Origin: Candidatus Parcubacteria bacterium | Lineage (GTDB): Bacteria; Patescibacteriota; Minisyncoccia; UBA6257; 2-01-FULL-56-20 | Assembly (NCBI GenBank): GCA_027355945.1 | Contig: DAIEHA010000002.1 | Span: 15,071-79,070, forward strand | Length of the DNA: 64,000 nucleotides | Reading direction: 5' to 3' | Part shown: positions 15,150-46,166 of the stretch, piece after piece | Numbering within the stretch: the stretch's first letter is position 1 | Layout of the letters: every line of letters begins with the position of its first letter | Position numbers and translations under genes: made by a program | The notes under the pieces: generated by a model | The model's database searches: none | The model's input: the letters and a program-made list of their open reading frames with translations, nothing else | Told to the model about the DNA's origin: nothing

Positions 15150-15150
15150 T

Positions 15151-15622: not shown

Positions 15623-15822
15623 CGTTGCACATAAATTCATCGGTCTATTGCCATGCATAAAAGCAAAAAGGTCGTTATCAGTAAAACAGAGCCATTCTTC
15701 ATCATCCTGACACTTGTCGGTGCGTTCGCGTTGTTTACATAGCAAACGTTGCGGATGGCGCAATATCACATGAGTGCGCCCCCTCTCCAGTAAAGCACTA
15801 CCACTATAATCTCCCAATCCAA

Positions 15823-16314: not shown

Positions 16315-16331
16315 TAACAACGATAAATAAA

Positions 16332-17297: not shown

Positions 17298-17313
17298 CCA
17301 AAATTGAAATCTT

Positions 17314-17505
17314 ATGAAATCAACGAATGACAATTTCTGGTTATTCATAAGCATCGGATTGTTTGTAATCATCGTCGGAACTGCGGGAGCTTATGCATTT
17401 CGGTCATTCAGTACGAATGCCGTATCACAAGAGAACGCCACTGTCGTTGCGCCATCACAAACCCAAACACCTTCATCCGGCCAAAGCGGCGGATGTGGGG
17501 TCTAA
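17314..17505 (+). CDS. Small membrane-anchored peptide ending in SGGCGV
   Basis: 63 aa with one TM (FWLFISIGLFVIIVGTAGAYAF). Its C-terminus QSGGCGV parallels the upstream protein's SSGGCGVQ although encoded by different codons. Confidence 0.45.
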   Translation: MKSTNDNFWLFISIGLFVIIVGTAGAYAFRSFSTNAVSQENATVVAPSQTQTPSSGQSGGCGV

Positions 17506-17510
17506 TCGCT

Positions 17511-18374: not shown

Positions 18375-18392
18375 TTAAAAAAACATAAAACC

Positions 18393-19013
18393 ATGAAAAA
18401 AAATACATCAAACGGTACTATGGCGGTTAAAGTGATCGGCATTTTTGCTATCTCGATATTTATCCTCGGAGGTATCGCTCTACTCAGTTATGAGAACAGC
18501 GACGCAGCACCTCAGGCGGGCGCCACAGGGTCTGGTAGCTTCGGCAGTGCACTCATCGGCAAGCCCGCGCCGCAATTTTCGCTGAAAGATCGCAACGAAG
18601 TCACATACACCCCAGATAGTTTGAAAGGAAAGAATGTGATTCTTTTCTTTAACGAGGGAATTATGTGCTATCCCGCATGCTGGAATCAGATGGTCGCGCT
18701 CGCGACGGATCCTCGGTTTCAAACATCCGATACGATCGCGCTTTCCATCGTGATCGACTCTCCGGATCAATGGCAGTCGGCGATCCAGAAAATGCCGGAC
18801 CTTGGGAAGGCAACCGTTCTCTTTGACACCGATAAATCCATTTCGCAGGAATACGGGATGCTCACCGCACTATCTTCGATGCATTACGGTTCCTACCCAG
18901 GTCATTCGTTCGTGATCCTCGACAAACAAGGGATCGTCCGCTTCGTCTATGATGACCCAGCTATGGGCATTGATGACGATCGTATCGCGGCCGATCTCCA
19001 AACGTTGAAATAG
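18393..19013 (+). CDS. SCO1/SenC-like copper-binding thioredoxin-fold protein
   Basis: Signal anchor. KNVILFFNEGIMCYPACW gives a CxxxC motif after a beta strand, as in SCO proteins. Downstream HSFVILDKQGIVRFVY matches the conserved SCO His region. Confidence 0.65.
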   Translation: MKKNTSNGTMAVKVIGIFAISIFILGGIALLSYENSDAAPQAGATGSGSFGSALIGKPAPQFSLKDRNEVTYTPDSLKGKNVILFFNEGIMCYPACWNQMVALATDPRFQTSDTIALSIVIDSPDQWQSAIQKMPDLGKATVLFDTDKSISQEYGMLTALSSMHYGSYPGHSFVILDKQGIVRFVYDDPAMGIDDDRIAADLQTLK

Positions 19014-19014
19014 C

Positions 19015-19464
19015 ATGCATAGACCGATCACGAAATCCTTTATCGGAGGGTCTATTGCGACGGGCACGCTCATCGCGGCATATTTCGCAATCGTTTCCCT
19101 CATATCGGGATTTGCATTCGCCGGAAGTCAGTTTGTGGAATTCTGGTTCTACTTCGTGGGATTGGCACTCGGCTTCGGCATTCAGATCGGGCTTTACATC
19201 TATCTGAAGCAACTGGTCCGTGGCGCAAGCGGCGGGCCAGTGGTGGCGGTGACGGGGATGACCTCGACCGCCGCCATGGTTGCGTGCTGCACCCACTATC
19301 TCGTGAACATTCTGCCAATTCTTGGAATAAGCGCCTTCGCCTCATTTGTCGGCGAATATCAGGTTCAGTTCTTTTGGGTTGGTATCGCATTCAATCTTGT
19401 GGGTATCGTCTATATTGCAAGTCGAGTTATAAAAGTCAGGGGGAATATGCAGCACATTGCATGA
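19015..19464 (+). CDS. Hypothetical four-TM membrane protein, possibly the N-terminal half of a split ICMT-like methyltransferase
   Basis: 149 aa, hydrophobic. Ends 4 nt into the next ORF, in a different frame. Contains ACCTHY. Confidence 0.45.
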   Translation: MHRPITKSFIGGSIATGTLIAAYFAIVSLISGFAFAGSQFVEFWFYFVGLALGFGIQIGLYIYLKQLVRGASGGPVVAVTGMTSTAAMVACCTHYLVNILPILGISAFASFVGEYQVQFFWVGIAFNLVGIVYIASRVIKVRGNMQHIA

Positions 19465-19748
19465 ACAAATCAAATCTTGCATGGACTGTCCTCTGTGAAG
19501 CACAGAAAGAACATACGCTTGCAATCGCGGGGCCGTATGCCCGCATTCGTCATCCACAATACATGGCATTCATACTTGTTATGCTTGGGTTCCTGTTTCA
19601 GTGGCCGACCATTCTCACGCTTGCTATGTTTCCGGTACTTCTGTGGATGTATGTGCATCTCGCGCGAACCGAAGAGAGAGAAGCGCAAGCGATCTTTGGC
19701 GTGGAATGGAATGCATATGCGGCGCAAACACCCGCGTTCATTCCCTAA
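19461..19748 (+). CDS. Isoprenylcysteine carboxyl methyltransferase (ICMT/PEMT) family C-terminal catalytic fragment
   Basis: AGPYARIRHPQYMAF (the RHPxY motif) and EEREAQAIFGVEWNAYAAQTPAFIP (C-terminal EE...FG..Y..Y motif). Only ~95 aa from the ATG at 19461. Confidence 0.5.
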   Translation: MNKSNLAWTVLCEAQKEHTLAIAGPYARIRHPQYMAFILVMLGFLFQWPTILTLAMFPVLLWMYVHLARTEEREAQAIFGVEWNAYAAQTPAFIP

Positions 19749-19790
19749 TGGAAACGAAACAATAAATCATTGAAATAAAAATCAACACCT

Positions 19791-19966
19791 ATGTTCAGAA
19801 TCTTTAAGAAAAAGTGTCCGATTTGCAGGATGGCACTCGAAGAAGGAAAACAATATCCTGAGGAATTCGGTAAACAATTCTGTTCGGAAAGATGCAAGAC
19901 ACAGTATCAAGAATTAACAAATAAAAAGAAGCAATCGCAACATTCCAGCCATGGTGGGTGTTGTTA
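19791..19966 (+). CDS. YHS/TRASH-domain small metal-binding protein ending in GGCC
   Basis: Hand translation: MFRIFKKKCPICRMALEEGKQYPEEFGKQFCSERCKTQYQELTNKKKQSQHSSHGGCC. C-x2-C...C-x3-C matches the TRASH/YHS pattern. Shorter than 60 aa, so absent from the ORF track. Confidence 0.55.
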
Positions 19967-19979
19967 AGAGTTCAACGCT

Positions 19980-21278
19980 ATGCGGTTATCGTTTCTTTTG
20001 ATCGGACTCGGATTTGTCGCGGTTTTGGCCGTCGGGGGTATTTCGAGTTCTCGTGCAGTAGCTGCAACGGTGGTAGCTACGAGTACTGGCGGCAATGCTT
20101 CGCAAGTCCAGATCAATACGGATAACCAACAGATCGCAGACCTCAACCAAAAAATAGCATCCTACCAAGCGCAACTTCGGAAAGTAGGTGCGGATAAGAA
20201 AACGCTCCAAGCGGCTATTCACGCGCTCGATTTGCAACGCAGCAACGCACAAGTGCAGGTTGCCGTTACCCAACTGCAGATCAACGCAACCCAGGCCCAG
20301 ATCAAACAGTTGGGCGGAGAGATATTGGGAGCGAAGCAGACGATAGCAGGGGATCAGGCGGCGCTCGGAGAATATCTTCAAAGTCTTCAAAAAGCCGACG
20401 ATAAGCCGTTGATCGTGCAGATGCTTTCATCGGGCGGTCTTGTTCAAGCATGGGATGATATTAATGCGACAGTAAAGATGCAAACCGCCGTCCAAAATCA
20501 AATGCAGGCGCTTCGTGTCCAGGAAGACAGCCTTGCCAACTCGCAGACAGTTTCAAAACAGAAACAGGAAGCACTCACATCGCAAAAACAGGCATTGGCA
20601 TCACGGCAGCAATCGCTTATCGCGACGGAACAATCTAAAAGTCAGCTGCTCGCCGAAACCAAGTCGCAAGAATCTGCTTATCAAAAATTGCTTGCCGCGG
20701 CGCACGCGGAGCTCAGTAGCTTCTCGACGTTTACAGAGAACGCGGGCGGATCAAAACTGCTTGCCAATCAGACCAGTTGCGACTCGTGGGGCTGCTATTA
20801 TAATCAGCGTGATTCGGCATGGGGCGCTACTCCTCTTGATGGGACAAAATATACGCTTGCACGCGCAGGGTGCCTCATTGCATCCGTGGCGATGGTGCTC
20901 ACGCATTACGGGTATAAGGATGTGACGCCTGCGACCATCAACTCGAACCCCGATAACTTCGCGGGGTATTCACCCGATCTGCTGCTCGCGTCGATCGACG
21001 TTGACGGTGTGACCGTTATGCGAAAGGCCATCAGGGTGAAAGGTGCCACTGCCGCACGAAAAATTTCAGTTATTGATGCGATGCTTGCGACTGGCCATCC
21101 GGCAATCGTCGGCATGAATGCCCTCGGCGGCACGCATTTTGTCGTACTCACGAGCGGGAGCAATGGTGATTACCTCATGCGCGATCCGTATGTAGCGAAT
21201 GGTAACGGTATCAGCTTCACCTCCTATTATTCATTGAAGGAGATATATAGCATTGCGAAGATCGTGATCGGGAGTTGA
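19980..21278 (+). CDS. Secreted coiled-coil protein with C-terminal C39-like (papain-fold) cysteine peptidase domain
   Basis: Signal peptide, ~250 aa Q/A-rich coiled coil, then SCDSWGCYYNQ...AGCLIASVAMVLTHYGY...GGTHFVVL resembling Peptidase_C39_2 with its Cys and His. PcsB-like architecture. Confidence 0.55.
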   Translation: MRLSFLLIGLGFVAVLAVGGISSSRAVAATVVATSTGGNASQVQINTDNQQIADLNQKIASYQAQLRKVGADKKTLQAAIHALDLQRSNAQVQVAVTQLQINATQAQIKQLGGEILGAKQTIAGDQAALGEYLQSLQKADDKPLIVQMLSSGGLVQAWDDINATVKMQTAVQNQMQALRVQEDSLANSQTVSKQKQEALTSQKQALASRQQSLIATEQSKSQLLAETKSQESAYQKLLAAAHAELSSFSTFTENAGGSKLLANQTSCDSWGCYYNQRDSAWGATPLDGTKYTLARAGCLIASVAMVLTHYGYKDVTPATINSNPDNFAGYSPDLLLASIDVDGVTVMRKAIRVKGATAARKISVIDAMLATGHPAIVGMNALGGTHFVVLTSGSNGDYLMRDPYVANGNGISFTSYYSLKEIYSIAKIVIGS

Positions 21279-21304
21279 CAGTAAATACCCCCTAGGGGTA
21301 TCAT
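21275..21304 (+). promoter_or_regulatory. ATPase promoter: TTGACA-N18-TATCAT with CsoR-type box TACCCCCTAGGGGTA (21286..21300) in the spacer
   Basis: Same hexamers, same 18 nt spacer and same box offset as the csoR promoter. ATG lies 13 nt after the -10. Confidence 0.6.
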
Positions 21305-21316
21305 TAAGAAAATAAT

Positions 21317-23689
21317 ATGAGCCACGACCATATGCATCACAACGAAGGGGCTGTTCGGCAACCGAATTGTGCCTGCGGCAAGAAGTGTTCCGGGTGCTCT
21401 GCGGAAAAACTAGCTGTTAATTGTGGTTGTGATATGGAAGCAAAACAGTTTGAATCCGATATGGATCATTCTTGCTGCCACAATACGCATAATAAAAAGA
21501 CGAGCGCTCCGGCCGTCGCAATGAGTGCGGAGGGAGGATCATATTATACCTGCCCAATGCATCCGGACGTGAGATCGAAAGTGCCCGGTAAGTGTCCGGG
21601 GTGCGGCATGGACCTTATCCTTAAAAAGGGCGAAGTTGCTTCGCAAGGTGATCATGCAAATCATGATATGCAGGCCATGAGCCATATGGATCATGAGGCG
21701 GCGATGACGAGCCCGCAATTGGCGAAGCAGATGGAGCGGGATATGCGTCGCCGATTTTGGATTTCATTCATACTCTCGATCCCGATCTTTCTTTATTCGC
21801 CGGTCGGCACAGCAGTGTTCAAGGTCGCGCTTTGGAGCCCCATCCCAATCAATTGGCTATTATTGATCCTCACCACGCCGATCGTATTTTGGACGGGCTC
21901 GATCTTCATCACAGGGACATACTATTCCCTGAAAGCAAAAAAGCTGAACATGGCGGTGCTTATTGCGACAGGGGTGTTGGCCGCCTATCTTTTTAGCGTT
22001 CTTCTCACCGTTATCGGAAGCCCCGATACTTTTTATGAGGCAGCAGCACTTTTGGTTACCTTCGTGCTCTTTGGCCATTGGATGGAGATGAAGTCTCGGC
22101 GTGGCACTTCGGAATCTTTGCGGGCCCTATTTGATCTTGTGCCGCCAAAGGCAACGGTTATCCGCGATGGTAGGGAGATCTCGATCCCAAGCGCCGAGAT
22201 TATGCATGATGACATTGTAGTAGTGCGGCCCGGCGACAAATTACCGGTGGACGGCGTTGTGACCGAAGGCGAGAGCGCGGTTGACGAGTCGCTCGTTACG
22301 GGAGAATCAATCCCAGTCACAAAAATGATCGGCGACAAAGTCACCGGTGGATCGGTCAACCAAACAGGGACCCTTAAGTTCAAGGCGACGCAGGTGGGTG
22401 CGGAAACCGTCCTCGCGCAGATCATTAAGCTCGTTGAGACGGCCCAGAATTCCAAAGCGCCGGGTCAGCGCCTTGCCGATCGCGCTGCTGGCTGGCTCGT
22501 TATCTTGGCCGTTGGTTCGGGTATCGTGACATTTCTTGGCTGGTATTTTTGGGGCCACACAGGATTCATCACTGCGCTGACATTCGCCATTTCAGCAGTG
22601 GTGATCGCGTGTCCGGATGCTTTGGGGCTTGCGACGCCGACCGCCGTGGCGGTGGGTACTGGTATCGGGGCAAAACATAATATCCTCATTAAAGATGCCG
22701 CGACACTAGAGAACACTTCCAAGTTGAATGCGGTTGTGCTCGATAAAACAGGGACGTTGACGGAAGGGAAGCCAAAGGTAACCGATATTGTTCCACTGAA
22801 TGGTTTTAACGAAGAAGATGTCTTGCGGTATGAGGCGAGCATTGAAAACAATTCCAATCATCCGGTTGCAAAGGCTATCGTGGACGAGGCCGCCAAGCGT
22901 GGCGTTTCTCTCGTGGAGTCTTCGCAATTCGAATCTATCCCTGGCTATGGCATAAAGGCGACCATCCTTGGCAAGCGGGTACTCGCGGGGAATGAACGAT
23001 TGATGACAACGAATGGCGTGGATGTGGTGTCGGCGAGGATGACCATCGACAAGCTTGCGAACGAAGGGAAGACGATCAGCCTGCTTTCCATCGATGAGAA
23101 GATCGCAGGGGTTACCGCCGTCGCCGATACCGTGCGCCCAAGCGCGAAACAGGCGATCAAACGACTCCAAGACCTCGGTATCGAAGTGGCGATGATAACG
23201 GGTGATCATAAAGTCGTCGCGGAAGCGGTCGGAAAGGAGCTTGGCATCAATCGTGTTTTTGCAGAAGTGCTCCCTAAAGATAAAGCGAGTTATGTGAAGA
23301 AACTGCAGGACGAAGGAAAATTTGTTGCGATGGTGGGCGATGGTGTGAATGACGCTCCGGCGTTGGCGCAATCGGACATCGGTATCGCGATCGGCGCGGG
23401 TACTGATGTAGCGATCGAGACCGGTAACATAGTGCTTATGAAATCCGATCCGAACGATATTGCCTCGGCAATCATCCTGAGCAAAGCAACGGTTGCTAAA
23501 ATGAAGCAGAATCTTTTCTGGGCGGCAATCTATAACGTGTCCGCGATTCCCGTTGCGGCAGGCGTATTCGCAGGGATCGGTATCACGCTCCGTCCGGAGA
23601 TTTCGGCGCTCCTAATGTCCGCGTCATCTATTATTGTTGCCACCAATGCGGTGCTCTTAAAGAGAGTCGAAAGTAAGCTTAAAAGCTAA
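21317..23689 (+). CDS. copA: Heavy-metal (Cu+-type) P1B ATPase with N-terminal His/Cys-rich metal-binding region
   Basis: DKTGT phosphorylation site, GDGVNDAP hinge, TM7 YN and TM8 MSASS (P1B-1 Cu+ signature). TM6 motif is CPD rather than CPC. N-terminal [10 protein letters not shown]...GKCPGCGM metal-binding domain plus His-rich stretches. Confidence 0.92.
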
Positions 23690-23723
23690 AAGGTCGCGAG
23701 GTAAATAATTAATTACTATTACA

Positions 23724-27184: not shown

Positions 27185-28699
27185 TCAAAGGAGCTTTGCG
27201 GCGATCTCTGCAAGGATCGAACGTTCGCTCCTTGAGAACGTGATGTGTCCGAAGAGCGGTTGGCCCTTCATCCGTTCCGTCACGTGTGAGAGTCCGTTCG
27301 TCACCGGATCGAGGTAGATGTTGTCGATCTGATCGATGTCGCCCGTGAGGACGATCTTCGACCCCTTGCCGATGCGGGTGATCACCTTCTTGATGTCGGG
27401 AGCCGTGAAGTTCTGCGTCTCATCGACGATCACGAACTTGTGGTGCAGCGACCGTCCTCGCACGAAGTTGATGGGTTGGATCTGGATGCTCGGATTCTTC
27501 CCGTTGATCATCGCTTCGAGATCGTAATTCTTGCGGCGGGTTTCGTCCGAGGGCTTCGTTTCGTATTGTTCAAGCTCCCTTCCGATGGAGAGAAGCTCCA
27601 GCGAGTCGAGGATGGGCTGCGCCCATGGGCCCCATTTCGCCACCATATCCCCCTTGAGGAATCCCAGAGGGGTCCCTATCTCGGAGTTCGCCCGGTACAC
27701 GAGGATCTGTTCATAGATCCCCTTCCCGGTCTTCGGTGTCGTCTGGTTGGTTCCCGCGAGGAGCGCCATCAGTGTTTTGCCTCCGCCGGCGATGCCGGAG
27801 AGGGAGATGATCTGGATCTCCGGGTCCATGAGCAGGGCATATGCGAACGCCTGTTCGATGTTGCGGGGCCTTATCTCCCTACCCTTCTCTTCGGAAGGTT
27901 TCGCTACCGGAGAGAAGTACGGAACGGTTCCGGGGGTCGCTTTCGAAAGGGCGAGGACGTGCTTGCCCTTACCGTCATCGGAACGGAACACGCAGCACTG
28001 GTTCGGAAAAAGTTCGGGGATATCCGCGAAGCGGCGTGCATCCTCTGCCTCAAGACGTCCCGAACCATTGGCTTCGAAAAGCCTCGTTGCGATCTCCCGG
28101 AGTCCTCCGGGATCGTGCGTTACGATCTCTGCGATGCCGGAATAGAGCTTGTCCGGAGTATCGACGAGACGGTCCTTTTTGTAGTCCTCGGCCCTTATCT
28201 TCAGAGCGTCAGCCTTGATCCTCAGGTTGATGTCCTTCGTGACGACCATGACGTCCCCGATCGGGCCGAACCTCGAGTAGAGATTCGCGCCTTTCCGGTT
28301 GTCGTCATTCTTCTTCTGCTTTTTGTTCTCCGTGCGAAGGGATTTCTGGTGCTTCCATCGAAGTGCGACGCCGAGGATGAAATCATCGGCCTTCGTCATA
28401 TCGAGGAGGTTTCCGCTTATACCCTGGGGTATGTAGACCTGCGTGCTTACCAGCAGGAATCCTCCCCCGGGGGTGGGAACGCCTTCGCACAGCGATCCGC
28501 GTTTCTGGAAATCGTCGAGCAGTCGTATCACTTGGCGTGCTGCCGCTGCAGTGCCATTCCCTCCTCTTTCTTTGTGGTGGTCCAGTTCCTGCAGTACGGC
28601 AAAGGGGATATCCACGATATTGTCCTGAAAGGACAATATCGCCTTGGGGTCATGCAAGAGAAGCGATGTGTCGACGATGATCGTTTTTCGAACGTTCAT
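27185..28699 (-). CDS. PhoH2-type protein (N-terminal PIN domain fused to PhoH-like ATPase)
   Basis: IIVDTSLLLHD (PIN Asp) at the N-terminus. GIAGGGKTLMALLAG Walker A in the C-terminal PhoH domain. Confidence 0.88.
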   Translation of the reverse strand: MNVRKTIIVDTSLLLHDPKAILSFQDNIVDIPFAVLQELDHHKERGGNGTAAAARQVIRLLDDFQKRGSLCEGVPTPGGGFLLVSTQVYIPQGISGNLLDMTKADDFILGVALRWKHQKSLRTENKKQKKNDDNRKGANLYSRFGPIGDVMVVTKDINLRIKADALKIRAEDYKKDRLVDTPDKLYSGIAEIVTHDPGGLREIATRLFEANGSGRLEAEDARRFADIPELFPNQCCVFRSDDGKGKHVLALSKATPGTVPYFSPVAKPSEEKGREIRPRNIEQAFAYALLMDPEIQIISLSGIAGGGKTLMALLAGTNQTTPKTGKGIYEQILVYRANSEIGTPLGFLKGDMVAKWGPWAQPILDSLELLSIGRELEQYETKPSDETRRKNYDLEAMINGKNPSIQIQPINFVRGRSLHHKFVIVDETQNFTAPDIKKVITRIGKGSKIVLTGDIDQIDNIYLDPVTNGLSHVTERMKGQPLFGHITFSRSERSILAEIAAKLL

Positions 28700-28965: not shown

Positions 28966-30264
28966 TCATTGTTCCGCGTTATAAAGCGCAAGCACCTCTG
29001 CCGGTGAGAGCGCTCTATTATAAAGACGGATATCCTCTATCGTCCCATCCAGATACATGGAGCTGCCGTTATACATATCCCATCGTCCCAGGTAAAGCGG
29101 ATCCCCGGCTCCCGGATCGGGGATCGCGGAATTGTAATAGTTGCTGCTCGCAAGCTGCCCGTTTATGTAAAGATATGCCGTATCCGAGGCATAAACGCCG
29201 GTGACGAGATACCATGAGTTTGCATTGAATTGCAGCGAACCAAAATCGGCATCGTTCCATCCGTTGTTGTCGTAATACGTCGACCAGCCGAGCGATGCTA
29301 TATAGATGTTGTTGTTGACCATCCCAAGAAAATAATCCGTTCCGGTAGCGACGGTCCCGTTCCTTGAGATGAATGGATAGGCGACCCCCGACGCGGGCAC
29401 GGTCGGTAGATTCGCCCATGCGGATACGGTCCATGGCCCTGGGAGATCGAGCGAGGCTGCATCCGCCACGTTCACATATTGATTCGTGCCATTGAACGAG
29501 AGGGCGTTTCCGAATAATCCGGCGGTCCATCCGGGGCCGTTCACGAGGGTTCCATTGTTCCCGTTCCCCGACTGGTCGAGGGCGGCGGTGCCGGTGCCCT
29601 CGTTGAGCGGCCAGTAGCCTACGAGGCCCTGGGTGTTCCAGAGCGGGGAGATCGTGAGTGCGGACCCTTGCGCTAAGACGCCTGGATATCCGGAGATCAT
29701 AGGATTCGCCTCAAGGGCCGCTTTCTGCTTGTTCGACTCCGGAATGGCGGTCGTCATATAGAAGGATCCCGAAGGGGAATATGTGTAATAGAGGCCGGAG
29801 GAGGAGGCGTTCACGGGGTCCACGGGAAGGGATCCAAAGGGGCTTCCCGAGGAGATTATTTTGAAATCGACGGGGATCCATCCTGTACCATCGGTATTCC
29901 TGAGAGACGTCCCGGAGTCGCATTGATAGGTATATCCCGAAGGAAGTGCAGGAAGGCCGAGGGATGCGCAGGTAGAGGTCTGTGTTCCCGTAAGCGTGGG
30001 ATCGGGGAGGGAGACATAGACGGAGGAGGCGTTGCCAAGAGAGAACGTCGATGCGCCCGATTGATCGGCCTCATAGATGCCAAGGGCAGAATGCAACGTT
30101 GCCGCATCGGACGCCCGGTTCGCATCCCGTGATTGCGCAAGCAATTGGGCGGGATTCAGCACAAGCACCACGACGACCGCGAGGATCGCGATGATCGCGA
30201 TCACGACGAGAAGCTCGATGAGGGTGAAGGCATTCTCCGGCTCATTCCAAGGGATTTCTTTCAT
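28966..30264 (-). CDS. Type IV pilin / pseudopilin-like protein with C-terminal LamG (concanavalin-like) domain
   Basis: The internal start MKEIPWNEPENAFTLIELLVVIAIIAIL is the prepilin cleavage/methylation motif. C-terminal ...DIRLYNRALSPAEVLALY is typical of LamG domain ends. ORF track extends to 30408. Confidence 0.7.
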   Translation of the reverse strand: MKEIPWNEPENAFTLIELLVVIAIIAILAVVVVLVLNPAQLLAQSRDANRASDAATLHSALGIYEADQSGASTFSLGNASSVYVSLPDPTLTGTQTSTCASLGLPALPSGYTYQCDSGTSLRNTDGTGWIPVDFKIISSGSPFGSLPVDPVNASSSGLYYTYSPSGSFYMTTAIPESNKQKAALEANPMISGYPGVLAQGSALTISPLWNTQGLVGYWPLNEGTGTAALDQSGNGNNGTLVNGPGWTAGLFGNALSFNGTNQYVNVADAASLDLPGPWTVSAWANLPTVPASGVAYPFISRNGTVATGTDYFLGMVNNNIYIASLGWSTYYDNNGWNDADFGSLQFNANSWYLVTGVYASDTAYLYINGQLASSNYYNSAIPDPGAGDPLYLGRWDMYNGSSMYLDGTIEDIRLYNRALSPAEVLALYNAEQ

Positions 30265-30363
30265 ACGGTGCGTATAATATATTATATAATTTTTTGATTC
30301 ATATATTCTATACGCATGGCAAAACAGCCCTACGCTCGGGATTTTCCATTGGGGAAAACGATG

Positions 30364-30437
30364 ATTGGTCGGGCCGCCGGGAATCGAACCCGGTCTATCT
30401 GCTCCCAAAGCAGACGTACTACCGGTATACTACGGCC
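30364..30437 (-). tRNA. tRNA-Pro (UGG) with encoded CCA
   Basis: Manual fold: acceptor CGGGCCG/CGGCCCG, anticodon stem TCTGC/GCAGA, loop TTTGGGA (G37), T arm CCGGG-TTCGATT-CCCGG, 3' ACCA. Confidence 0.85.
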
Positions 30438-39083: not shown

Positions 39084-39103
39084 GCGAATCATCAATCGAG
39101 GCA

Positions 39104-39676
39104 ATGCCAAAGACATTCCGCAGATCATCGCTTCTCAGGACACTCCCCATCCTTGCGATCCTTGCATCCATGGCGTTTCCTTTTGCTGCGTCCGCGGCGA
39201 CGATGCCGTCGATCTGGCCTACGGGATGGTGGGGGCCCATCGTCTCGTGCACCGGGAACTACATTCCCAATTCCCCGCAGATACCGGTGAATGGATCGCA
39301 GCCCAAACCTTGCACCAGCCTTGATGATCTCGTGCAGACCCTGCTGAATGCGCTTTCGCTCCTTATGTCCATCGCGCTCTTCATCATCGCCCCTATCCTT
39401 GTCGCGGTAGGGGGTATCATGCTTATGATGGGTGGCGCGAATCCCGAGATGTTGGGAAGAGGGAAGAGCATCCTTACGGGGACCGTCATCGGTGCCGTTA
39501 TCATCTTGTCCTCGTATCTCATCATCAGCACCGTCCTTACCGCGTTCGGCGTCGTGCAATGCTTCGGAGGATTCGGTCCCGGATGCGCCACTGCGGGATC
39601 CTCATTCATATATCCGATGAAAGGTCTTGGGGAAACGGCGTTCGCCGCCGCACTTTTCAAAAATGCGATTCTTTGA
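39104..39676 (+). CDS. VirB2/TrbC-like pilin paralog 1 (inferred)
   Basis: Signal peptide plus two hydrophobic helices separated by the GGANPEMLGRGKSILTG loop. Paralogous to 41260, 41741 and 42274. Confidence 0.5.
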   Translation: MPKTFRRSSLLRTLPILAILASMAFPFAASAATMPSIWPTGWWGPIVSCTGNYIPNSPQIPVNGSQPKPCTSLDDLVQTLLNALSLLMSIALFIIAPILVAVGGIMLMMGGANPEMLGRGKSILTGTVIGAVIILSSYLIISTVLTAFGVVQCFGGFGPGCATAGSSFIYPMKGLGETAFAAALFKNAIL

Positions 39677-40517
39677 GAAGACCTCTTCCTTCTTTGCGCT
39701 CGCCGCATCCGCGGCCGCATTCATCGTCCCCTCGATCTCCTTTGCCGCGGTTCAGATTTCCACATCCATCCCCGGCGGGGTATATAGCACCTCAAGCGTG
39801 GGTATCGGGGCCTATGTGGGCAATTTCTACGCATTCGCGCTCTGGGCAGGGGGTATCCTCGCTTTTGCGGTCGTCGTCTTTGGAGGGGTGAAGTACATGG
39901 TATCCGTGGGGAATCCCTCGAACCAGGAGGATGCGAAGGAATGGATCAAATCCGCGCTTCTGGGGGTCCTCCTCCTTGCAGGCGCCTACTTCATCCTCAA
40001 TCTCGTCAATCCCCAACTCACCAACCTCACCCCTCCCGCCCTTGCTCCTGTGAATCTGCAGCAGTCATTGCAGAACTCCTTCAGTGCGGTCTCGCCGCTC
40101 AATAGCACGCAATATCCGCAATCCTATAATGCCAGCCGTCTTTCTCAAGCCGGCGTGGGAGTGTTCAGCTCCGGAAATTGCAGCACGCAGAGCAATGCCG
40201 CCTGCACCAGCCTGCAGGGCATGCGCACGGATACTGTGAATGAGGTGGTGACCCTGAAAAAGGATTGCGGATGCACCGTTACCGTCACCGGAGGCACGGA
40301 AGCGGGTCATGCCGTATCCGCGAACGGTATCGATCACGCCGATGGATATAAAGCCGATCTTGCGGCGAACAGCGGGCTTACCAATTATATCGAGAGTACA
40401 TTCGCGCCCGTGGGATATCGGGGAAGCGACGGAGCCCAGCAATGGAAGGACAATACCACCGGGGCGATCTATGCATACGAACCCTGGAGCAACCATTGGG
40501 ATATCACCGTGCCATAA
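39663..40517 (+). CDS. Pilin-like paralog 2 with ~190 aa Cys-containing C-terminal extension
   Basis: Same signal, TM, GNPSNQEDAKEWIKSALLG loop, TM architecture. Then a Q/S/N-rich region with CSTQSNAAC and CGC. The internal MRFFEK start is preferred (ORF track 39627). Confidence 0.5.
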   Translation: MRFFEKTSSFFALAASAAAFIVPSISFAAVQISTSIPGGVYSTSSVGIGAYVGNFYAFALWAGGILAFAVVVFGGVKYMVSVGNPSNQEDAKEWIKSALLGVLLLAGAYFILNLVNPQLTNLTPPALAPVNLQQSLQNSFSAVSPLNSTQYPQSYNASRLSQAGVGVFSSGNCSTQSNAACTSLQGMRTDTVNEVVTLKKDCGCTVTVTGGTEAGHAVSANGIDHADGYKADLAANSGLTNYIESTFAPVGYRGSDGAQQWKDNTTGAIYAYEPWSNHWDITVP

Positions 40518-40526
40518 ATCCGATCG

Positions 40527-41228
40527 ATGCAAACAATCATGAAAAAATTATTCATTGTTCTCGGAGTGCTCGCGGCGGGCGTGGCGGTATGGTTCATTGC
40601 ACGGGGTGCGGCTCCTGCGTCCGCGCAGGGACTTCCTCCTCCTTCTGCCGCCCCCACTCCCACTCCTGTTCCCGCTCCTGTTCCCGTAAGCGCGGTGCCG
40701 ATCTATCAGACATCCACGGCTGGCGCGAATGGGGGAGGATCTTCTTCAGGGTCCCCCGTGCATGCGGTGCCGATCTATCAGACATCCACGGCTGGCGCGA
40801 ATGGGGGAGGCCTTTTGGGTACGGCAGCGCCGGTTGCGGGAGCTTCGGGAGGAGGGGCGCTCGGTCTCGTTCCCGTCTATAAGGTTCCCAGTTCTTCCGT
40901 GATCACGATCCAAACCCAATCGGGCGGCATTCCGTTGAATAATTTCTATTCTTCCGCGCTCGGAGCCCAGGATGAATTCGTGGTGCTCGCGCGAACGGGT
41001 TCTTATGAGATAGATTACGATACCTATACCAGCGGATTCGACATCGATATCCTCGGCGGCTCGCTCAGTGCGGATCAACCCCCCGCAGAGGCCGCGTTCC
41101 TTGCCATGCTTGGCATTGCTAAGACAAACGCCTGTCGTCTTACGGTTGCGGTGAGCGAGACGGCGGTAAGCAGTACCATGCGGCTCCCCCTGAGTTTCTG
41201 CGCCTCATCGTCGGCCTTTTCGCAATAA
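40527..41228 (+). CDS. Secreted Pro/Ala-rich protein with duplicated AVPIYQTSTAGANGGG segment
   Basis: Signal peptide, PTPTPVPAPVPV linker, and an exact 46 nt direct repeat (40693..40738 and 40765..40810). Confidence 0.5.
   Translation: MQTIMKKLFIVLGVLAAGVAVWFIARGAAPASAQGLPPPSAAPTPTPVPAPVPVSAVPIYQTSTAGANGGGSSSGSPVHAVPIYQTSTAGANGGGLLGTAAPVAGASGGGALGLVPVYKVPSSSVITIQTQSGGIPLNNFYSSALGAQDEFVVLARTGSYEIDYDTYTSGFDIDILGGSLSADQPPAEAAFLAMLGIAKTNACRLTVAVSETAVSSTMRLPLSFCASSSAFSQ
40693..40810 (+). repeat. Two exact 46 nt direct repeats, 72 nt period, inside a CDS
   Basis: gcggtgccgatctatcagacatccacggctggcgcgaatgggggagg occurs twice. Confidence 0.8.
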
Positions 41229-41259
41229 CATCCATTTGCTGGTGGTGTATAATTAAGCC

Positions 41260-41703
41260 ATGGCCCCAAAAAAGAGAAACAACTGGAGAAGGAATATCAT
41301 GCTGGGGGCGGCTTTGCTTTCATTGGGCATTCTCCTGGCCGCATCGGGGGGGGTTGTGCATGCGCAAACCAACGATAGCAATGTGAATAATCTTATGAAT
41401 ACTCTCCGGGGTCATCCCAGCTCGGGAGGGTCCTCCCAGGTCACGCTCTTCGACCCTCTCCAGGGCCAGGGTTTCAGCGCCATTCTTGCGAGCGTAGTGA
41501 ATTTTCTCGTTGTCGATATCGCCATTCCGCTCACCTCCATTATGGTGCTCGTCGGGGCGTTCCAGATGATCACCTCCTCCGGCGATCCCGAGAAGTACGG
41601 CAAGGGAAGGAAGACGCTTCTCTGGGCCGCGATCGGGTTCGTGGTCTCCCTCGTTGCCACAAGCGTCGTGACGCTTATCAGGGGGATCTTCGGGGTGGGG
41701 TAG
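41260..41703 (+). CDS. VirB2/TrbC-like pilin paralog 3 (inferred)
   Basis: Signal peptide. TM1 ...MVLVGAFQMITSSGDPEKYGKGRKTLLWAAIGFVVSL... TM2. Confidence 0.5.
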   Translation: MAPKKRNNWRRNIMLGAALLSLGILLAASGGVVHAQTNDSNVNNLMNTLRGHPSSGGSSQVTLFDPLQGQGFSAILASVVNFLVVDIAIPLTSIMVLVGAFQMITSSGDPEKYGKGRKTLLWAAIGFVVSLVATSVVTLIRGIFGVG

Positions 41704-41740
41704 GTTCGATCGGATAACAGGTCGTCATCCAAGAAAACAA

Positions 41741-42205
41741 ATGAACAAACATATTTTACAGATAAGATCATCGGTGCAGAGGGCAACTTCGTTCCTGATC
41801 ATACTCGGAGGGGTTGCGGCGGCACCTCTCGCATTCGCCCAGGGTGCCGGAGGCCTTGGCGGATTGGACACGAGCGTGTTCAATAGCGGTCAGCCGACCG
41901 TGACGTACGGGGGAGCCGCCCCATCCCTTTCTTTGAGCAGTGCAAGCGATGTGGTGAACAAGATATTATGTCCCACCTTCAGCCTGATGTTCTGGATACT
42001 GATGGCGGTTTCCATGATCATGGTCCTCATGGCGGGATTCCAATATGCCACGGCCGGGGATGATACCGAAAAGACCACGAAGGGAAGGAAGACGCTTACC
42101 TGGGCCGCCGTCGGCATCGTAGTGGCGCTTTCCGCCAAGGCATTCCCCGTGCTCGTAGCAAGCATCTATGGAGTGACTGGTGTTCTTCAGTGCGCAGCCT
42201 TCTAG
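41741..42205 (+). CDS. VirB2/TrbC-like pilin paralog 4 (inferred)
   Basis: ...MVLMAGFQYATAGDDTEKTTKGRKTLTWAAVGIVVAL... Confidence 0.5.
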   Translation: MNKHILQIRSSVQRATSFLIILGGVAAAPLAFAQGAGGLGGLDTSVFNSGQPTVTYGGAAPSLSLSSASDVVNKILCPTFSLMFWILMAVSMIMVLMAGFQYATAGDDTEKTTKGRKTLTWAAVGIVVALSAKAFPVLVASIYGVTGVLQCAAF

Positions 42206-42273
42206 TTTGCCCGTATCTCTAAATGGAGTATACTGGAAGGGTAACGTGAAAGGTCGAGTTATCGAACAAGCTT

Positions 42274-42669
42274 ATGGATAAAGCGATCAGTTTTGCGAAA
42301 AAAGTTGGCCCCACCATGATTTCTTTCGTGGTGCCTGCCCTTGCGTTTGCGCAGGGCATTCAGAATCCGCTGCCCGGTACGGGGGTGAGCAATGTTCCTG
42401 TTGCCAATATCACGAGCCTGCAGTCCATCCTCAACGATCTCTGCGTCGTGTTTGCCTGGATGTTCTACTTCTTGATCGTGGTGGCAATCATCTTCGTCGT
42501 CGTTGCGGCATTCAAGTATCTGACCGCAGGAGGCGATCCGGAGAAGGTGAAGAGCGCAGGAGCAACCCTCCTCTATGCCGCGGTCGCGATCGGTGTTGCG
42601 CTTCTCGCGAAGGCAATCCCGCTCGTCGTCGGAAACTTCCTCGGAGCAGGTACGGTCACGTCCTGCTAG
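42274..42669 (+). CDS. VirB2/TrbC-like pilin paralog 5 (inferred)
   Basis: ...VVVAAFKYLTAGGDPEKVKSAGATLLYAAVAIGVAL... Confidence 0.5.
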   Translation: MDKAISFAKKVGPTMISFVVPALAFAQGIQNPLPGTGVSNVPVANITSLQSILNDLCVVFAWMFYFLIVVAIIFVVVAAFKYLTAGGDPEKVKSAGATLLYAAVAIGVALLAKAIPLVVGNFLGAGTVTSC

Positions 42670-42697
42670 GCGGAAAGTTCCATCGTGGAATCATGCG

Positions 42698-42727
42698 AAA
42701 TCCCGCAGCAATGCGGGATTTTGTTTT
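42698..42727 (+). terminator. Rho-independent terminator closing the pilin-like cluster
   Basis: AATCCCGCA-GCAA-TGCGGGATT followed by TTGTTTT. Confidence 0.6.
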
Positions 42728-42799
42728 GCATCCTATTAAGACAAAAATTTACCCCGCATGCGTCGACGTTGTGCGTCATTGCATGCGGGGCTGATGATC

Positions 42800-43279
42800 T
42801 CATTGGGCGGCGCTCCATACTGCCACCCAGACGATCGCTGCCGCGAGAAGCAATACTATCATGATCCCGCCTTCCACTTCGACATTTTTATTCCTGTACC
42901 AGGGCCGTGTAGCCCTGGGAGCGGACGGGGCAGGAATCATCGGGATCGGCAGTTTTGCGACGTGGTATCTTGCCGCAATCTTGCGCCGTTCATCCCACCG
43001 CGATGACTCCATCTGATGAGGGTCATTCTTTCCGCCAACCCTCACCGACATTACATGGAACTGCTGCTTCTCCTCGGTCACCTTCACGGCGACCGAAGCG
43101 GGGACGTAGATCCCCTCTTCTTTTAGATGGATGAGGACTTTCATTGTGAATTCCCCATCCTCCGTCATTTTGAATACTTTTTTCGCACGCTTCTCGAGCG
43201 CGCTCGAGAGAGGGTCTACCAATGGCCCTCCCAGTTTTTCTGCGACTTTTCGCCGCAGAAGTTCCAACCAAGAGAACAT
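42800..43279 (-). CDS. Hypothetical protein with C-terminal TM anchor
   Basis: The internal start MFSWLELLRR is chosen. C-terminal IMIVLLLAAAIVWVAVWSAA helix. Confidence 0.4.
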   Translation of the reverse strand: MFSWLELLRRKVAEKLGGPLVDPLSSALEKRAKKVFKMTEDGEFTMKVLIHLKEEGIYVPASVAVKVTEEKQQFHVMSVRVGGKNDPHQMESSRWDERRKIAARYHVAKLPIPMIPAPSAPRATRPWYRNKNVEVEGGIMIVLLLAAAIVWVAVWSAAQ

Positions 43280-43393
43280 GGTTCCTCCTCTGTTCTTCGC
43301 GCCGTCGTGCTGCGCTACTACATTATATATCATATATAATATATTTTGTCAAATATCACGGTATGGGTTAGGATAAAGGTCGTGGTACTGTCT

Positions 43394-43474
43394 GCTGGGG
43401 TGGCGAAATGGCAGACGCACCGGCTTTAGGAGCCGGCGCCGCAAGGCATGTGGGTTCAAGTCCCACCCCCAGCA
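43394..43474 (+). tRNA. tRNA-Leu (UAG), class II with long variable arm
   Basis: Manual fold: acceptor GCTGGGG/CCCCAGC, anticodon stem CCGGC/GCCGG, loop TTTAGGA, variable arm GCCGCAAGGC, T arm GTGGG-TTCAAGT-CCCAC, discriminator A. Confidence 0.82.
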
Positions 43475-43596
43475 CATCGAAGTCCGGCGAGCGCGAGCAG
43501 AGCAACACGGGCGAGTATCTGCTTCACTGTATCTTCCGATAGCGTGACGATTAAAAAATAGACCCCCGTCCACGGATTTTCGTGGAGGGGGGTCTC

Positions 43597-43974
43597 TCAT
43601 GCGTCCAGCGCGGTACGCAATTTGTTCAACATCTGCTTGATCGATCTTCCCGCCGCCTTCTGAAGCAGCGGGTTTTCCATCACCGACGCAATCTCTTCTT
43701 CGGTAAGGCCCAACTTCTTCGAAAGGAATTCGGTCGCAGTATTTCCATTGGATTTGCTGCGATCGTCAAACTCGATGCCTTCTCCGAGAAGTGATTGTAT
43801 CGCACCCCGATATTTCAGGGTGACGGTTCGATCTCCCGATTCCCACCGGGAGATCAGGCTTGCAAAGCTCACCACCGATGTTTTCGAGCGCATGTTGGGG
43901 ATCAGTGGAAAGAGCTTTTCCGCGAATTCACGTATTCCCCATCCTTTTGCAACGCGTGCTTCCTTGAGAAGCAT
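43597..43974 (-). CDS. XRE-family helix-turn-helix transcriptional regulator
   Basis: LLKEARVAKGWGIREFAEKL is HTH_3-like. 125 aa. Confidence 0.55.
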   Translation of the reverse strand: MLLKEARVAKGWGIREFAEKLFPLIPNMRSKTSVVSFASLISRWESGDRTVTLKYRGAIQSLLGEGIEFDDRSKSNGNTATEFLSKKLGLTEEEIASVMENPLLQKAAGRSIKQMLNKLRTALDA

Positions 43975-44181
43975 AGTGCTCCTTTCGTCGAGAGAGGCCC
44001 GACGACAGATTTTATTATATTACATAATCAGTATTTTGTCTATATATTCTCCTGGATGCAGGAGTTTTGATCGAGGCGTATCGCGGTGCACTCAGCGTTC
44101 CTGCGTCATTCTTTCATCGATCGTGATGACTCCCGCGGTGCTGCATGCCGCGATCGGCGCCGCGGCACATCCTTTTTCATG

Positions 44182-45132
44182 CTATTGCTGCCTGCCGTGG
44201 AACTTCTCATGCACCTCGCGAAGCTGTTTGTTCGTGAGATGGGTATAGATCTGCGTGGTTGCAATGTTCGCATGGCCGAGCAGTTCCTGGACGGAACGGA
44301 GGTCGGCGCCGTTTATGAGAAGGTCGGTCGCAAAGCTGTGGCGGAGGAGATGGGCGTGGATGCGTTCGGGGATGCCCGCTTCCTTTGCGCGGCGTTCCAC
44401 GATCCGCTGGACGGCGCGATGGGTGATCGGGCCGATCGCTTTGTCCATCCTGTCCAGGCTCACGAACAATCTTTCTTCCGGATCGGTGCGCATATCGAGA
44501 TAGGTTTTTATCGCATCGCGTGCGCGGTCGGAGATGAATACGACGCGCAGCTTGTCGCCTTTGCCCCGCACGGAGATCTCGCCGCGCTTCCAGTCGGCAT
44601 ACCGCGAGAGCGCACAAAGCTCGGCGAGGCGAAGTCCCGTCGAAAAGAACGTTTCAAGGATCGCGCGGTCCCGCAGATCGCGGAGCGAGGGGGCGCGTTT
44701 TTTTGCGGCTGCCGATGCGAGCGGTGCCTCGAGGAGCCGGACGAGGTCCTCTGGTCGTATCGTCTCGATCTGGCGCGAACCGATCTTCGGCAATTCGATC
44801 TTTTCCGCGGCGAGCGTCTCGATGTCGCGCTTGCGCAGGAATTTGAGAAAGTTGCGGATCGCGATCACGTAATAGCCCTGTGTCACTTTTTTGAGCCCTT
44901 GTTCGTCGAGTGAGTTGCGGAAACCGCTTACGAGATCGATCGTGATGTCGGAGGGGGATGATATCCCCGTAAATTCAACGAATTTGCCGAGGCAGCGTCC
45001 GTAGTTTTCACGCGTCTTCCTTGAGCGGTTCTTTTCGACGGTAAGATAGTTGAGATAGGTGCGGACCCATCGTTCGAGTTCTGTGCGCGGTGCAGGCTCT
45101 TTTTCGGGCATTCGTTCCTTTGGCGGAGGCAT
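44182..45132 (-). CDS. Tyrosine recombinase (XerC/XerD-like integrase)
   Basis: Catalytic-domain motifs HLLRHSFATDLL and LLGHANIATTQIYTHL. N-terminal SAM-like core-binding region. Start MPPPKE preceded by GGAGG. Confidence 0.85.
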   Translation of the reverse strand: MPPPKERMPEKEPAPRTELERWVRTYLNYLTVEKNRSRKTRENYGRCLGKFVEFTGISSPSDITIDLVSGFRNSLDEQGLKKVTQGYYVIAIRNFLKFLRKRDIETLAAEKIELPKIGSRQIETIRPEDLVRLLEAPLASAAAKKRAPSLRDLRDRAILETFFSTGLRLAELCALSRYADWKRGEISVRGKGDKLRVVFISDRARDAIKTYLDMRTDPEERLFVSLDRMDKAIGPITHRAVQRIVERRAKEAGIPERIHAHLLRHSFATDLLINGADLRSVQELLGHANIATTQIYTHLTNKQLREVHEKFHGRQQ

Positions 45133-45243
45133 GATTTCATTATACCTCCATCTGTCGCACAATGTGATAGCGTCGTATCGGTACGACGGGGATATGACGC
45201 GGACCCCTTGCTAAATTTTCCGGAATAGGTTATCATATCATCA

Positions 45244-45510
45244 ATGCTTACCAAAAGAGTTAAATCCCGCATCGTCGGGGAAAATAAGACCCACGATAAG
45301 GATACGGGTTCCGCCCAGGTTCAGATCGCGATGACGAGCCGTCAGATCGACGAGCTTGCGGCCCATCTCAAAAAGAATCCGAAGGACAATCACTCGCGCC
45401 GCGGTCTTTTGAAGATGGTTTCACGAAGGCGCAAGCTTCTTGCATATCTGAAGAAGCATGAACCTTCCTCCTACGAAAAGTTGATCAAGAAGCTCGAACT
45501 TAAGAAATAA
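45244..45510 (+). CDS. rpsO: 30S ribosomal protein S15
   Basis: 88 aa. GSAQVQIAMTSRQIDELAAHLKKNPKDNHSRRGLLKMVSRRRKLLAYL is canonical S15. Confidence 0.95.
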   Translation: MLTKRVKSRIVGENKTHDKDTGSAQVQIAMTSRQIDELAAHLKKNPKDNHSRRGLLKMVSRRRKLLAYLKKHEPSSYEKLIKKLELKK

Positions 45511-46166
45511 TGAGACAGCGTGCGGCCAATTCCAACCAGCGGGTTGGAATTTTCGTTGATGTGTCGAATCTCTACCATTCGGCGAAGAATCTCTATCAAG
45601 GCAGGGTGAACTATGCCGAGCTTATCAAGCATCTTGTGGCTGATCGGCAGCTCATCCGGGCAATGGCGTATGTCGTGAAAAGCGAGGGCATCGAGCCTCA
45701 GCATTCCGCGCGCGATGAAAAGGGACAGCAAGGGAGGGGGCGGTCCCTCCATTCCACAGGATCCTTTGCGGCCCCTTCGGCATCCGCCGATGCGAGCGCG
45801 GGCGGCGGATCCTCCGAGGCAAGCTTCTTTGAGGCTCTTGAGAAGGCGGGATTCGAGCTCCGGATGAAGGACCTTCAGATCTTTGCGGGAGGTATGAAGA
45901 AGGGCGATTGGGACGTTGGCATCGCGGTGGATGCCATTCGGATGATGCCGTCGCTCGACGTCGTCATTCTTGTGACGGGCGACGGCGATTTCGTGCCGCT
46001 CGTCAACTATCTGAAATGGGCGGGAGGGTGCGTGGTCGAGGTCGCCTCATTCAGGCGGAGCGCATCATCGAAGATCGTGGAGGCGGCGGACGAGTTCATC
46101 AACATCGAGACGATCCCGCGCGCGGTCATGAAGACGCGGTATCGGCGGACTCCGGTGGAGAGGTAG
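45510..46166 (+). CDS. NYN-domain (LabA-like, PIN-fold) protein
   Basis: VGIFVDVSNLY...DVGIAVDAIRMMPSLDVVILVTGDGDFVPLV matches the NYN/LabA catalytic core. Start overlaps the rpsO stop (TAATG). Confidence 0.7.
   Translation: MRQRAANSNQRVGIFVDVSNLYHSAKNLYQGRVNYAELIKHLVADRQLIRAMAYVVKSEGIEPQHSARDEKGQQGRGRSLHSTGSFAAPSASADASAGGGSSEASFFEALEKAGFELRMKDLQIFAGGMKKGDWDVGIAVDAIRMMPSLDVVILVTGDGDFVPLVNYLKWAGGCVVEVASFRRSASSKIVEAADEFINIETIPRAVMKTRYRRTPVER

Follow-up and report, generated by a model that had tools for sequence, protein, structure and literature searches.

A Patescibacteria VirB2-like pilin array with probably distinct subunits, a hypervariable block and a candidate cell-wall hydrolase head

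A cluster of six genes, here called g1 to g6, lies on the forward strand of a 64,000-nucleotide stretch of contig DAIEHA010000002.1 (assembly GCA_027355945.1; the whole stretch is referred to as the window), and five of its products are VirB2-like pilin proteins. It is suggested here that the cluster is a pilin operon of the T4SS (type IV secretion system) kind, built of distinct subunits, one of which carries a putative hydrolase head, and that the block from g1 to g5 is exchanged, or changes fast, between close relatives. We put the probability of this explanation, taken as a whole, at roughly 0.6. Loci of this kind are already in the literature; what is added is the positional orthology of the genes across lineages, the hypervariable block and the family to which the g2 head belongs. 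A large part of the diversity of bacteria belongs to the Patescibacteria, whose members live attached to other microbes, and in the sole species of the group to have been tested the T4SS and its pilin array are essential. A preliminary description of the window had placed six plus-strand open reading frames at 39104-42669, and this placement is correct. The features on which the argument depends are as follows.

39104-39676, + strand: g1, 190 aa, VirB2-like pilin family, with an N-terminal extension that contains Cys and a tail at the C-terminus
39627/39663-40517, + strand: g2, 296 aa from a TTG start, or 284 aa from the ATG at 39663 as in public gene calls
39627-40040, + strand: N-terminal part of g2, signal peptide and VirB2-like helical hairpin
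40104-40517, + strand: C-terminal globular domain of g2 (residues 160-296), an unannotated family and putative extracytoplasmic cell-wall hydrolase
40527/40539-41228, + strand: g3, 233 or 229 aa, a secreted or anchored non-pilin protein
41260/41299-41703, + strand: g4, VirB2-like pilin, 147 aa, or 134 aa if the ATG at 41299 is the start
41741-42205, + strand: g5, VirB2-like pilin, 154 aa
42274-42669, + strand: g6, VirB2-like pilin, 131 aa
37773-39083, + strand: gene for an orphan membrane-anchored solute-binding protein (SBP), Pfam SBP_bac_1 at 1.6e-28
42697-42728, + strand: intrinsic terminator that closes the operon (GC-rich stem of 10 bp, GCAA loop, T-rich tail)

Judged by profile matching, the five pilin-like proteins almost certainly belong to the PF18895 family of the VirB2/TrbC superfamily. 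All of them score above the Pfam gathering cutoff of 26.6 bits for PF18895 (T4SS_pilin), at 27.5 bits for g1, 33.4 for g2, 45.0 for g4, 43.1 for g5 and 33.2 for g6, g4 being the strongest member of the array, and g3 has no match to the profile. The NCBIfam model for 'Mbov_0395 pilin-like conjugal transfer protein' was also matched, below its cutoff. The assignment to VirB2/TrbC-like pilins made in the preliminary description is upheld by the Pfam search, but the five genes are not strictly consecutive as had been stated, since g3 intervenes between g2 and g4. The architecture of a signal peptide followed by two hydrophobic helices was likewise borne out. In g1, g2, g4, g5 and g6 the sequence itself shows a hydrophobic leader at the N-terminus with an AxA-type site at its end, a Kyte-Doolittle scan finds two strongly hydrophobic segments in each of them, and AlphaFold models g2 as a helix-loop-helix (residues 60-92 and 97-127) with pLDDT above 90. 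The mature forms of g4, g5 and g6 are small and unfused, at about 90-110 aa.

The loop between the helices had been described as conserved throughout. This is true of g4, g5 and g6, where the motif (S/A)GGDPEK..KGRKTL.WAA.G is well conserved and a family of 62-nt DNA repeats, 61-77% identical, falls within it, but the motif is loosely conserved in g1 (GGANPEM..RGKSIL) and in g2 (VGNPSNQEDAKEWI). The proteins are divergent tandem paralogs, as had also been proposed, with BLASTP similarities far beyond chance (3.6e-20 for g5-g6, 6.9e-15 for g4-g5 and 7.9e-10 for g1-g5) and identities of 20-28% over the full length, rising locally to as much as 48%. No extra pilin copies were found in the window with a custom hidden Markov model of the pilin domain. 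An open reading frame at 15121-15561 (E = 0.003 with the custom model) was considered as a sixth pilin and dismissed, as it has no Pfam support and sits in a metal-resistance cluster.

The position of each gene is conserved in distant relatives. The order S1, (metallo-hydrolase), gyrA, SBP_bac_1 and then g1 to g6 recurs in four other lineages (L002, L003, L017 and L020) whose GyrA proteins are 72-95% identical to that of the window. In all-against-all BLASTP comparisons each gene of the window matches its positional counterparts better than its paralogs in the same genome; for g4, as an example, the score is 84 bits with the orthologues and 58 bits with g5. The positional best hits are reciprocal, which supports orthology, and orthologue identities are 36-45% for g1, 54-55% for g4 and 48-52% for g5. 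It follows that the duplications are older than these lineages and that every copy has been retained in its own right, which speaks for six old and distinct subunits (major, minor or accessory) rather than interchangeable antigenic copies. The array would then be a fixed six-part kit and not a set of spare antigenic variants, and the conservation of such a kit is a new point beyond the published arrays.

These observations bear directly on the possibility that the tandem paralogs are interchangeable major pilins by which the filament surface is varied, with consequences for antigenicity or host range. An antigenic or host-range role of pilin arrays has been speculated upon in a survey of the phylum (PMC12102498), in which an analogy is drawn with the VirB2 arrays of Bartonella and Anaplasma. 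Those tandem virB2 genes resemble the present ones in that several divergent copies stand side by side; they are thought to be alternative antigenic variants, whereas the copies described here are ancient positional orthologues in one operon. The divergence of the paralogs, at 20-48% identity, and the hypervariability of g1-g5 between close relatives described below would both suit such a role. However, orthologues in the same position are closer than paralogs within the genome, down to a GyrA identity of 72%, and the copies are therefore old and individually maintained. In addition, there are no long DNA repeats between the paralogs that could serve cassette recombination, only the 62-nt stretch, two of the members are structurally distinct (g2 by its enzyme-like head and g1 by its extensions), and a single operon with one terminator suggests co-expression. 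We regard interchangeable antigenic pilins as a distinctly unlikely explanation. The earlier view that the array reflects diversification of a filament holds in so far as g1-g5 are highly variable between close relatives, but the positional best matches speak against recent antigenic copies.

Comparison by blastn with a close relative, L020 (JAJYDL010000018.1), delimits one further feature.

39084-42272, + strand: hypervariable block, g1 to g5

Across gyrA and the SBP gene, as far as the stop codon of the latter (39083), the two sequences share 86% DNA identity. Within the block there are just short patches at 66-79%, and identity returns at 80% from 42273, one base before the start codon of g6, and runs on across the terminator, the tRNA-Leu and a recombinase gene. 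The proteins follow the same pattern, with identities of 95% for GyrA, 89% for the SBP, 89% for g6 and 92% for the Xer recombinase, against 45% for g1, 46% for g2 (pilin part only), 27% for g3, 55% for g4 and 58% for g5. Thus g6 is the sole member of the array still conserved in L020, and the identities of g1-g5 to this close relative do not exceed those to genomes with a GyrA identity of 72-77%. The block has either been replaced by recombination through its conserved flanks or is evolving much faster than g6 and the flanks. We favour replacement, because the edges are sharp and because g5 and g6, pilins of one family, differ so widely in conservation (58% and 89%). Genes that are swapped or diverge quickly between near-identical genomes are what would be expected of parts that touch the host.

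Modelled alone by AlphaFold, residues 160-296 of g2 gave a pLDDT of 93 and a pTM of 0.88. Across 54 sequences from two phyla H237, G240 and D244 are invariant, and T221, G223, T224, H228, K242, E285, H290, W291 and D292 are at least 90% conserved. The head thus displays an H-x6-D motif (H237...D244), a late H-x-D motif (H290-W-D292) and a conserved Glu, together with two Cys pairs. In a library of 1.84 billion proteins, its family has 1,324 cluster representatives at E<=1e-3. Outside the Patescibacteria, secreted proteins that carry it come from Streptomyces, Kitasatospora, Kutzneria, Amycolatopsis, Herpetosiphon, Deinococcus and myxobacterial metagenome-assembled genomes (MAGs), and in homologues from Actinomycetota and Herpetosiphon the head is often preceded by PG_binding_1 and PG_binding_3 repeats. 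Among Patescibacteria we found chains of pilin, head and SLT as well as of pilin, SLT and head.

A 1.5-kb fragment (L095/P0013) encodes a pilin domain 80% identical to that of g2, with a C-terminal lysozyme-like SLT_3 domain in place of the head, and the gene upstream of it also differs. In L020 the g2 slot holds a different Cys-rich domain, with the pattern H-x2-G-x-A-x-D ... H-I-D, for which PHROGs and PDB sequence searches gave no match. As far as these comparisons reach, the g2 pilin domain is mosaic and is joined to alternative heads.

It is more probable than not that the g2 head is a cell-wall (peptidoglycan) hydrolase. This reading is based on the conserved His, Asp and Glu residues, the fusions to PG_binding and SLT domains, and the presence of SLT_3 on a pilin domain 80% identical to that of g2. 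The preliminary description had proposed that the C-terminal module of g2 could act as a tip adhesin; the same three lines of evidence leave that proposal unsupported, and an adhesin is less likely than a hydrolase. The best fold matches of the head in BFVD were to a multi-domain phage protein named 'glycoside hydrolase family 19', to Peptidase M15A and Peptidase M15, and to a 'cell wall hydrolase'. They are weak (E = 0.013-0.9, probability up to 0.98, TMq 0.40-0.47, none at E<=0.001), and a possible likeness to the LAS/M15 enzymes is kept as a lead on the strength of these matches and of the H-x6-D / H-x-D pattern. LAS/Peptidase M15 proteins such as VanY and the phage M15A endolysins share with the head the H-x6-D motif, the late H-x-D and the conserved Glu, and M15, M15A or endolysin proteins supply its best BFVD folds (probability 0.87-0.98, TMq 0.41-0.47), but the head has no significant match in BFVD, PDB, Pfam or PHROG and its membership is unproven. 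A PDB sequence search with the head returned no match, tblastn of the head against phage genomes found none, and a fold search with full-length g2 was uninformative, being dominated by the helical hairpin.

Gram-positive T4SSs employ wall hydrolases of the VirB1 type, which are SLT and CHAP proteins such as pIP501 TraG and pCF10 PrgK (see also PMC12102498). As in those proteins, g2 would have a membrane-anchored N-terminus followed by an extracytoplasmic wall-degrading domain, and relatives of g2 pair the head with SLT. The predicted anchor of g2 differs in being a VirB2-like hairpin instead of a single transmembrane helix, and the head has no match to SLT, CHAP or M23. A literature search on fusions of pilins with peptidoglycan hydrolases in Patescibacteria led only to two papers on the T4SS that are cited here, and no mention of PF18896 was found in the literature searched.

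Genome contigs were scanned for the head with a profile built from a 12-sequence alignment; a single-protein query gave nothing. Head homologues occur twice per chromosome in Streptomyces sp. CB01881 (L023/L026) and in Kitasatospora purpeofusca (L057/L076), near opposite ends; in one case the chromosome is 11.3 Mb long and the two copies lie at 2.25 Mb and 10.90 Mb. This suggests that the actinobacterial homologues reside in chromosome arms or terminal repeats.

The one member of the array that is not a pilin, g3, has an N-terminal hydrophobic leader and a low-complexity linker rich in Pro, Ala and Gly. Its conserved domain is some 115 aa long and contains two Cys residues that are invariant. 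It was considered as a possible VirB8-like protein, and profile searches gave no Pfam or PDB match. A search with an alignment of the C-terminal domain returned 116 homologues, and all of those with a taxonomic name are from Patescibacteria; on this sampling the family is specific to the phylum. It is constantly found at position 3 of the array, with positional orthologues in L002, L003, L014, L017 and L020. The linker contains an internal repeat.

40683-40810, + strand: in-frame tandem duplication in the g3 linker, with a 72-nt period (24 codons)

An exact duplication of 46 nt had been reported in this gene. The duplication is real, but its exact run is 47 nt, 40692-40738 being the same as 40764-40810, within a 56-nt repeat of 93% identity. 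One homologue (P0122) lacks a single 24-aa unit and is otherwise identical to g3, and the duplication is therefore recent and polymorphic among near-identical genomes.

How such a set of proteins could function has to be considered alongside what has been described elsewhere. Quinonero-Coronel et al. (2025, PMC12102498) searched 3,035 Patescibacteria assemblies with PF18895, PF04956 and other profiles and found VirB4 in 2,417 of them. VirB2-like pilins were present in 1,948 of the VirB4-positive assemblies and lay near virB4 in 1,135 of these 1,948. The same survey counted 441 VirB2 arrays; they hold 2-11 genes, which stand in tandem or have a non-pilin gene between them, and paralog identity is 25% on average and 54% at most. 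It also noted that most pilin-bearing genomes have no recognisable VirB1. The T4SS cluster of Southlakia epibionticum includes an array of six pilins that is essential (Wang et al. 2023, PMC10633639), and its essentiality is also recorded in a 2025 review (PMC12857230) in which a possible pilus of the monoderm T4SS is treated as an open question.

It is very likely that the present locus is a Patescibacteria VirB2 array of this published kind. Like the published arrays it consists of PF18895/VirB2-like small hairpins with Sec leaders and low paralog identity, in tandem copies (five in this case, and so at least two) with one interposed non-pilin gene, g3, and it is chromosomal, without a relaxase, in a Patescibacteria host. 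It differs in its large distance from any virB4 (36 kb or more on one side and 21 kb or more on the other), in its fixed place downstream of gyrA and an orphan SBP, and in having at position 2 a pilin fused to an enzyme-like domain. Neither positional orthology nor a block such as g1-g5 is mentioned in the available parts of PMC12102498 and PMC10633639. The MAG GCA_021834505.1, which is nearly identical to the window, is not listed in the supplementary tables of the former paper. The absence of nearby machinery is common for this kind of array.

The likeness extends to the pilins of diderm bacteria. Agrobacterium VirB2, RP4 TrbC and F TraA (PF04956) have in common with the proteins described here a long signal peptide, two hydrophobic helices, a short basic loop, a small mature size and the Pfam superfamily. 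In contrast, the present array belongs to a monoderm host, has no adjacent VirB3 or VirB4, consists of multiple fixed paralogs of which one bears a globular head of 137 aa, shows no sign of cyclisation or acetylation, and falls below the cutoff for PF04956.

Several results weigh against a T4SS-type pilin operon with a hydrolase head. With respect to the family, the TrbC/VirB2 scores of the two proteins that match PF04956 (23.9 bits for g4 and 18.9 for g1) are under the gathering cutoff of 27.9 bits, and a match to VirB2 in PDB is insignificant (E = 0.8). With respect to the machinery, the preliminary description had remarked that no secretion machinery was in view, and this is confirmed: Pfam searches of essentially all open reading frames found no VirB4, VirD4, VirB6, VirB3 or relaxase in the window or in the 8 kb to its left, and no T4SS genes were present within 10 kb of those homologous arrays that were examined. 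Genetic linkage of the array to VirB4 (with VirB3, VirB6 or TrsD) was accordingly not found, and a Patescibacteria T4SS pilus has never been visualised (PMC12857230). With respect to g2, the head falls in no Pfam family (54 members at E<=1 yielded only PG_binding and pilin domains), none of the SLT, CHAP, M23, M15 and amidase profiles of Pfam match it, it has no PHROG profile match, and a Foldseek search of the head alone against PDB gave nothing significant, so the hydrolase reading draws on domain context and weak fold matches. Lastly, the hypervariability of g1-g5 is based on one genome pair and one mosaic fragment (L095).

The distance from any T4SS gene raises the possibility that the PF18895 hairpins serve as anchors or oligomeric membrane proteins of an envelope module that forms no pilus, and which would place the g2 head, g3 and the SBP at the cell surface, for example in wall turnover, division or nutrient capture. 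The constant place of the array beside gyrA and the SBP gene, the tight linkage of the latter to the array, the lack of T4SS genes within 72 kb (or 10 kb in relatives) and the repeated fusion of pilin hairpins to domains of the peptidoglycan-hydrolase type are all in keeping with this. On the other hand, the family lies within the VirB2/TrbC superfamily, and the unfused g4, g5 and g6 have no cargo to anchor. Furthermore, the homologous array of Southlakia lies inside a T4SS cluster and is essential (PMC10633639), and many pilin genes of Patescibacteria adjoin virB4 (PMC12102498). An envelope module independent of a T4SS is thus considered unlikely, and a T4SS-type pilin operon is preferred.

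If the array is indeed such an operon, each of its pilin-like proteins would be exported by means of the Sec leader and inserted into the membrane as a two-helix hairpin, with both termini outward and the short positively charged loop toward the cytoplasm. A VirB4-type T4SS specified by another part of the genome could, by analogy with VirB2, extract the hairpins from the membrane, and they might be polymerised into a pilus or into an envelope-spanning conduit that serves the epibiotic lifestyle. The chances that filaments are formed in this T4SS-dependent manner seem to us evenly balanced. The six genes would provide distinct and ancient subunits, namely major and minor pilins and accessory parts, with g3 as an accessory surface protein. 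In VirB2 the two termini point outward, with the loop on the side of the cytoplasm or of the pilus lumen; a C-terminal head would therefore be placed beyond the membrane or, in a filament, on its outer surface. The g2 hairpin could then act as an anchor or as a filament subunit that presents the extracytoplasmic enzyme head, which may be displayed on a filament and might supply a VirB1-like opening of the wall or act on the wall of the host. Pilin-fused heads of this unrecognised family could explain why VirB1 seems to be absent from most pilin-bearing genomes in the published survey (PMC12102498). The exchange or fast diversification of g1-g5 would be that of exposed surface parts which meet hosts or phages.

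A bolder version of this scheme would make the head a new family of peptidoglycan hydrolases carried on a pilin, as the 'missing VirB1' or as a means of breaching the host wall at or along the pilus, and the g1-g5 block a host-specificity cassette exchanged among closely related epibionts, with the flanking gyrA-SBP and g6 as the recombination anchors. We hold this to be doubtful as a whole.

The organisation of the locus is that of an operon, probably transcribed together with gyrA and the orphan SBP gene and ending at the terminator at 42697-42728. The SBP gene ends 20 nt upstream of g1, with which it is probably co-transcribed, and spacing within g1-g6 ranges from overlap to 68 nt. The SBP itself has an N-terminal membrane anchor and precedes the pilin array in each syntenic genome. 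No ABC permease or ATPase partner for it was found across about 72 kb, and it may be functionally part of the pilin operon. The strong terminator that had been noted at the end of the cluster is present as a stem-loop (AAATCCCGCA-gcaa-TGCGGGATTT) followed by the T-rich TGTTTTG, some 30 nt past the last stop codon; the RNA fold of the 171-nt region around it has a z of -4.47, and in L020 it has been kept along with g6. A simple pattern scan overlooked it. A second strong hairpin (CCCCGCATGC...GCATGCGGGG) at 42752-42790 lies between convergent genes and, because a T-run follows it on the minus strand, is probably the terminator of the minus-strand gene at 42800-43333.

By its relatives, the host is a Patescibacteria bacterium (Candidate Phyla Radiation, CPR) of the Paceibacteria type, since the nearest named homologues and syntenic loci are those of Liptonbacteria, Paceibacterota, Zambryskibacteria and Wolfebacteria. 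A metagenome contig in ENA (ERZ27236853:k141_2093859, 107.8 kb) matches the window at 100% identity, and the NCBI MAG GCA_021834505.1 matches it at 99.98%. Apart from the array its gene content is a reduced housekeeping set, with H+-PPase, FtsH, SHMT, FolD, PhoH, S1, GyrA, PNPase, RecA, FtsK, ClpB and eight tRNAs. The G+C content of the array (0.567-0.568) equals that of its flanks. Two further features lie downstream of the array.

43394-43475: tRNA-Leu
44182-45162: gene of the Phage_integrase family, encoding a Xer-like tyrosine recombinase

Their proximity could be taken to mean that the pilins are what is left of a mobile T4SS, that is, of an integrated conjugative element, and the stretch between g6 and the recombinase does differ in content between the window and L020. 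Nevertheless, the synteny of the array with housekeeping genes extends over several lineages, its G+C content is the same as that of the flanks, and the window contains no relaxase, coupling protein or VirB4. Moreover, the recombinase is 92% conserved in L020, and the variable g1-g5 lie on the other side of the conserved g6. Descent from such an element is most improbable. The stretch itself, which holds the tRNA-Leu (42800-44180 in the window, 6661-11460 in L020), is likely to be an integration hotspot, with two small genes in the window and four unrelated open reading frames (227-429 aa, no Pfam match) in L020, so that its gene content differs between close relatives.

Elsewhere in the window, 28966-30408 on the minus strand encodes a type IV pilin-like protein in which an N-terminal methylation motif (N_methyl) is joined to a Laminin_G_3 / concanavalin-like lectin domain, and which suggests that there is a second, unrelated pilus system (type IV pili) with a possible adhesive subunit. 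A region at about 14000-23700 has a lower G+C content (0.45-0.52, against about 0.57) and is possibly an acquired island. It holds a metal and redox cluster with a CsoR-type metal-sensitive repressor (14844-15149), DsbD-like proteins, a redoxin, an ICMT-family methyltransferase, a Peptidase_C39_2 protein and a heavy-metal P-type ATPase with an HMBD domain (21317-23689). A PIN-PhoH fusion (27185-28699, minus strand) and an NYN-domain RNase (45510-46166, plus strand), adjoining rpsO and pnp, are ordinary for CPR genomes.

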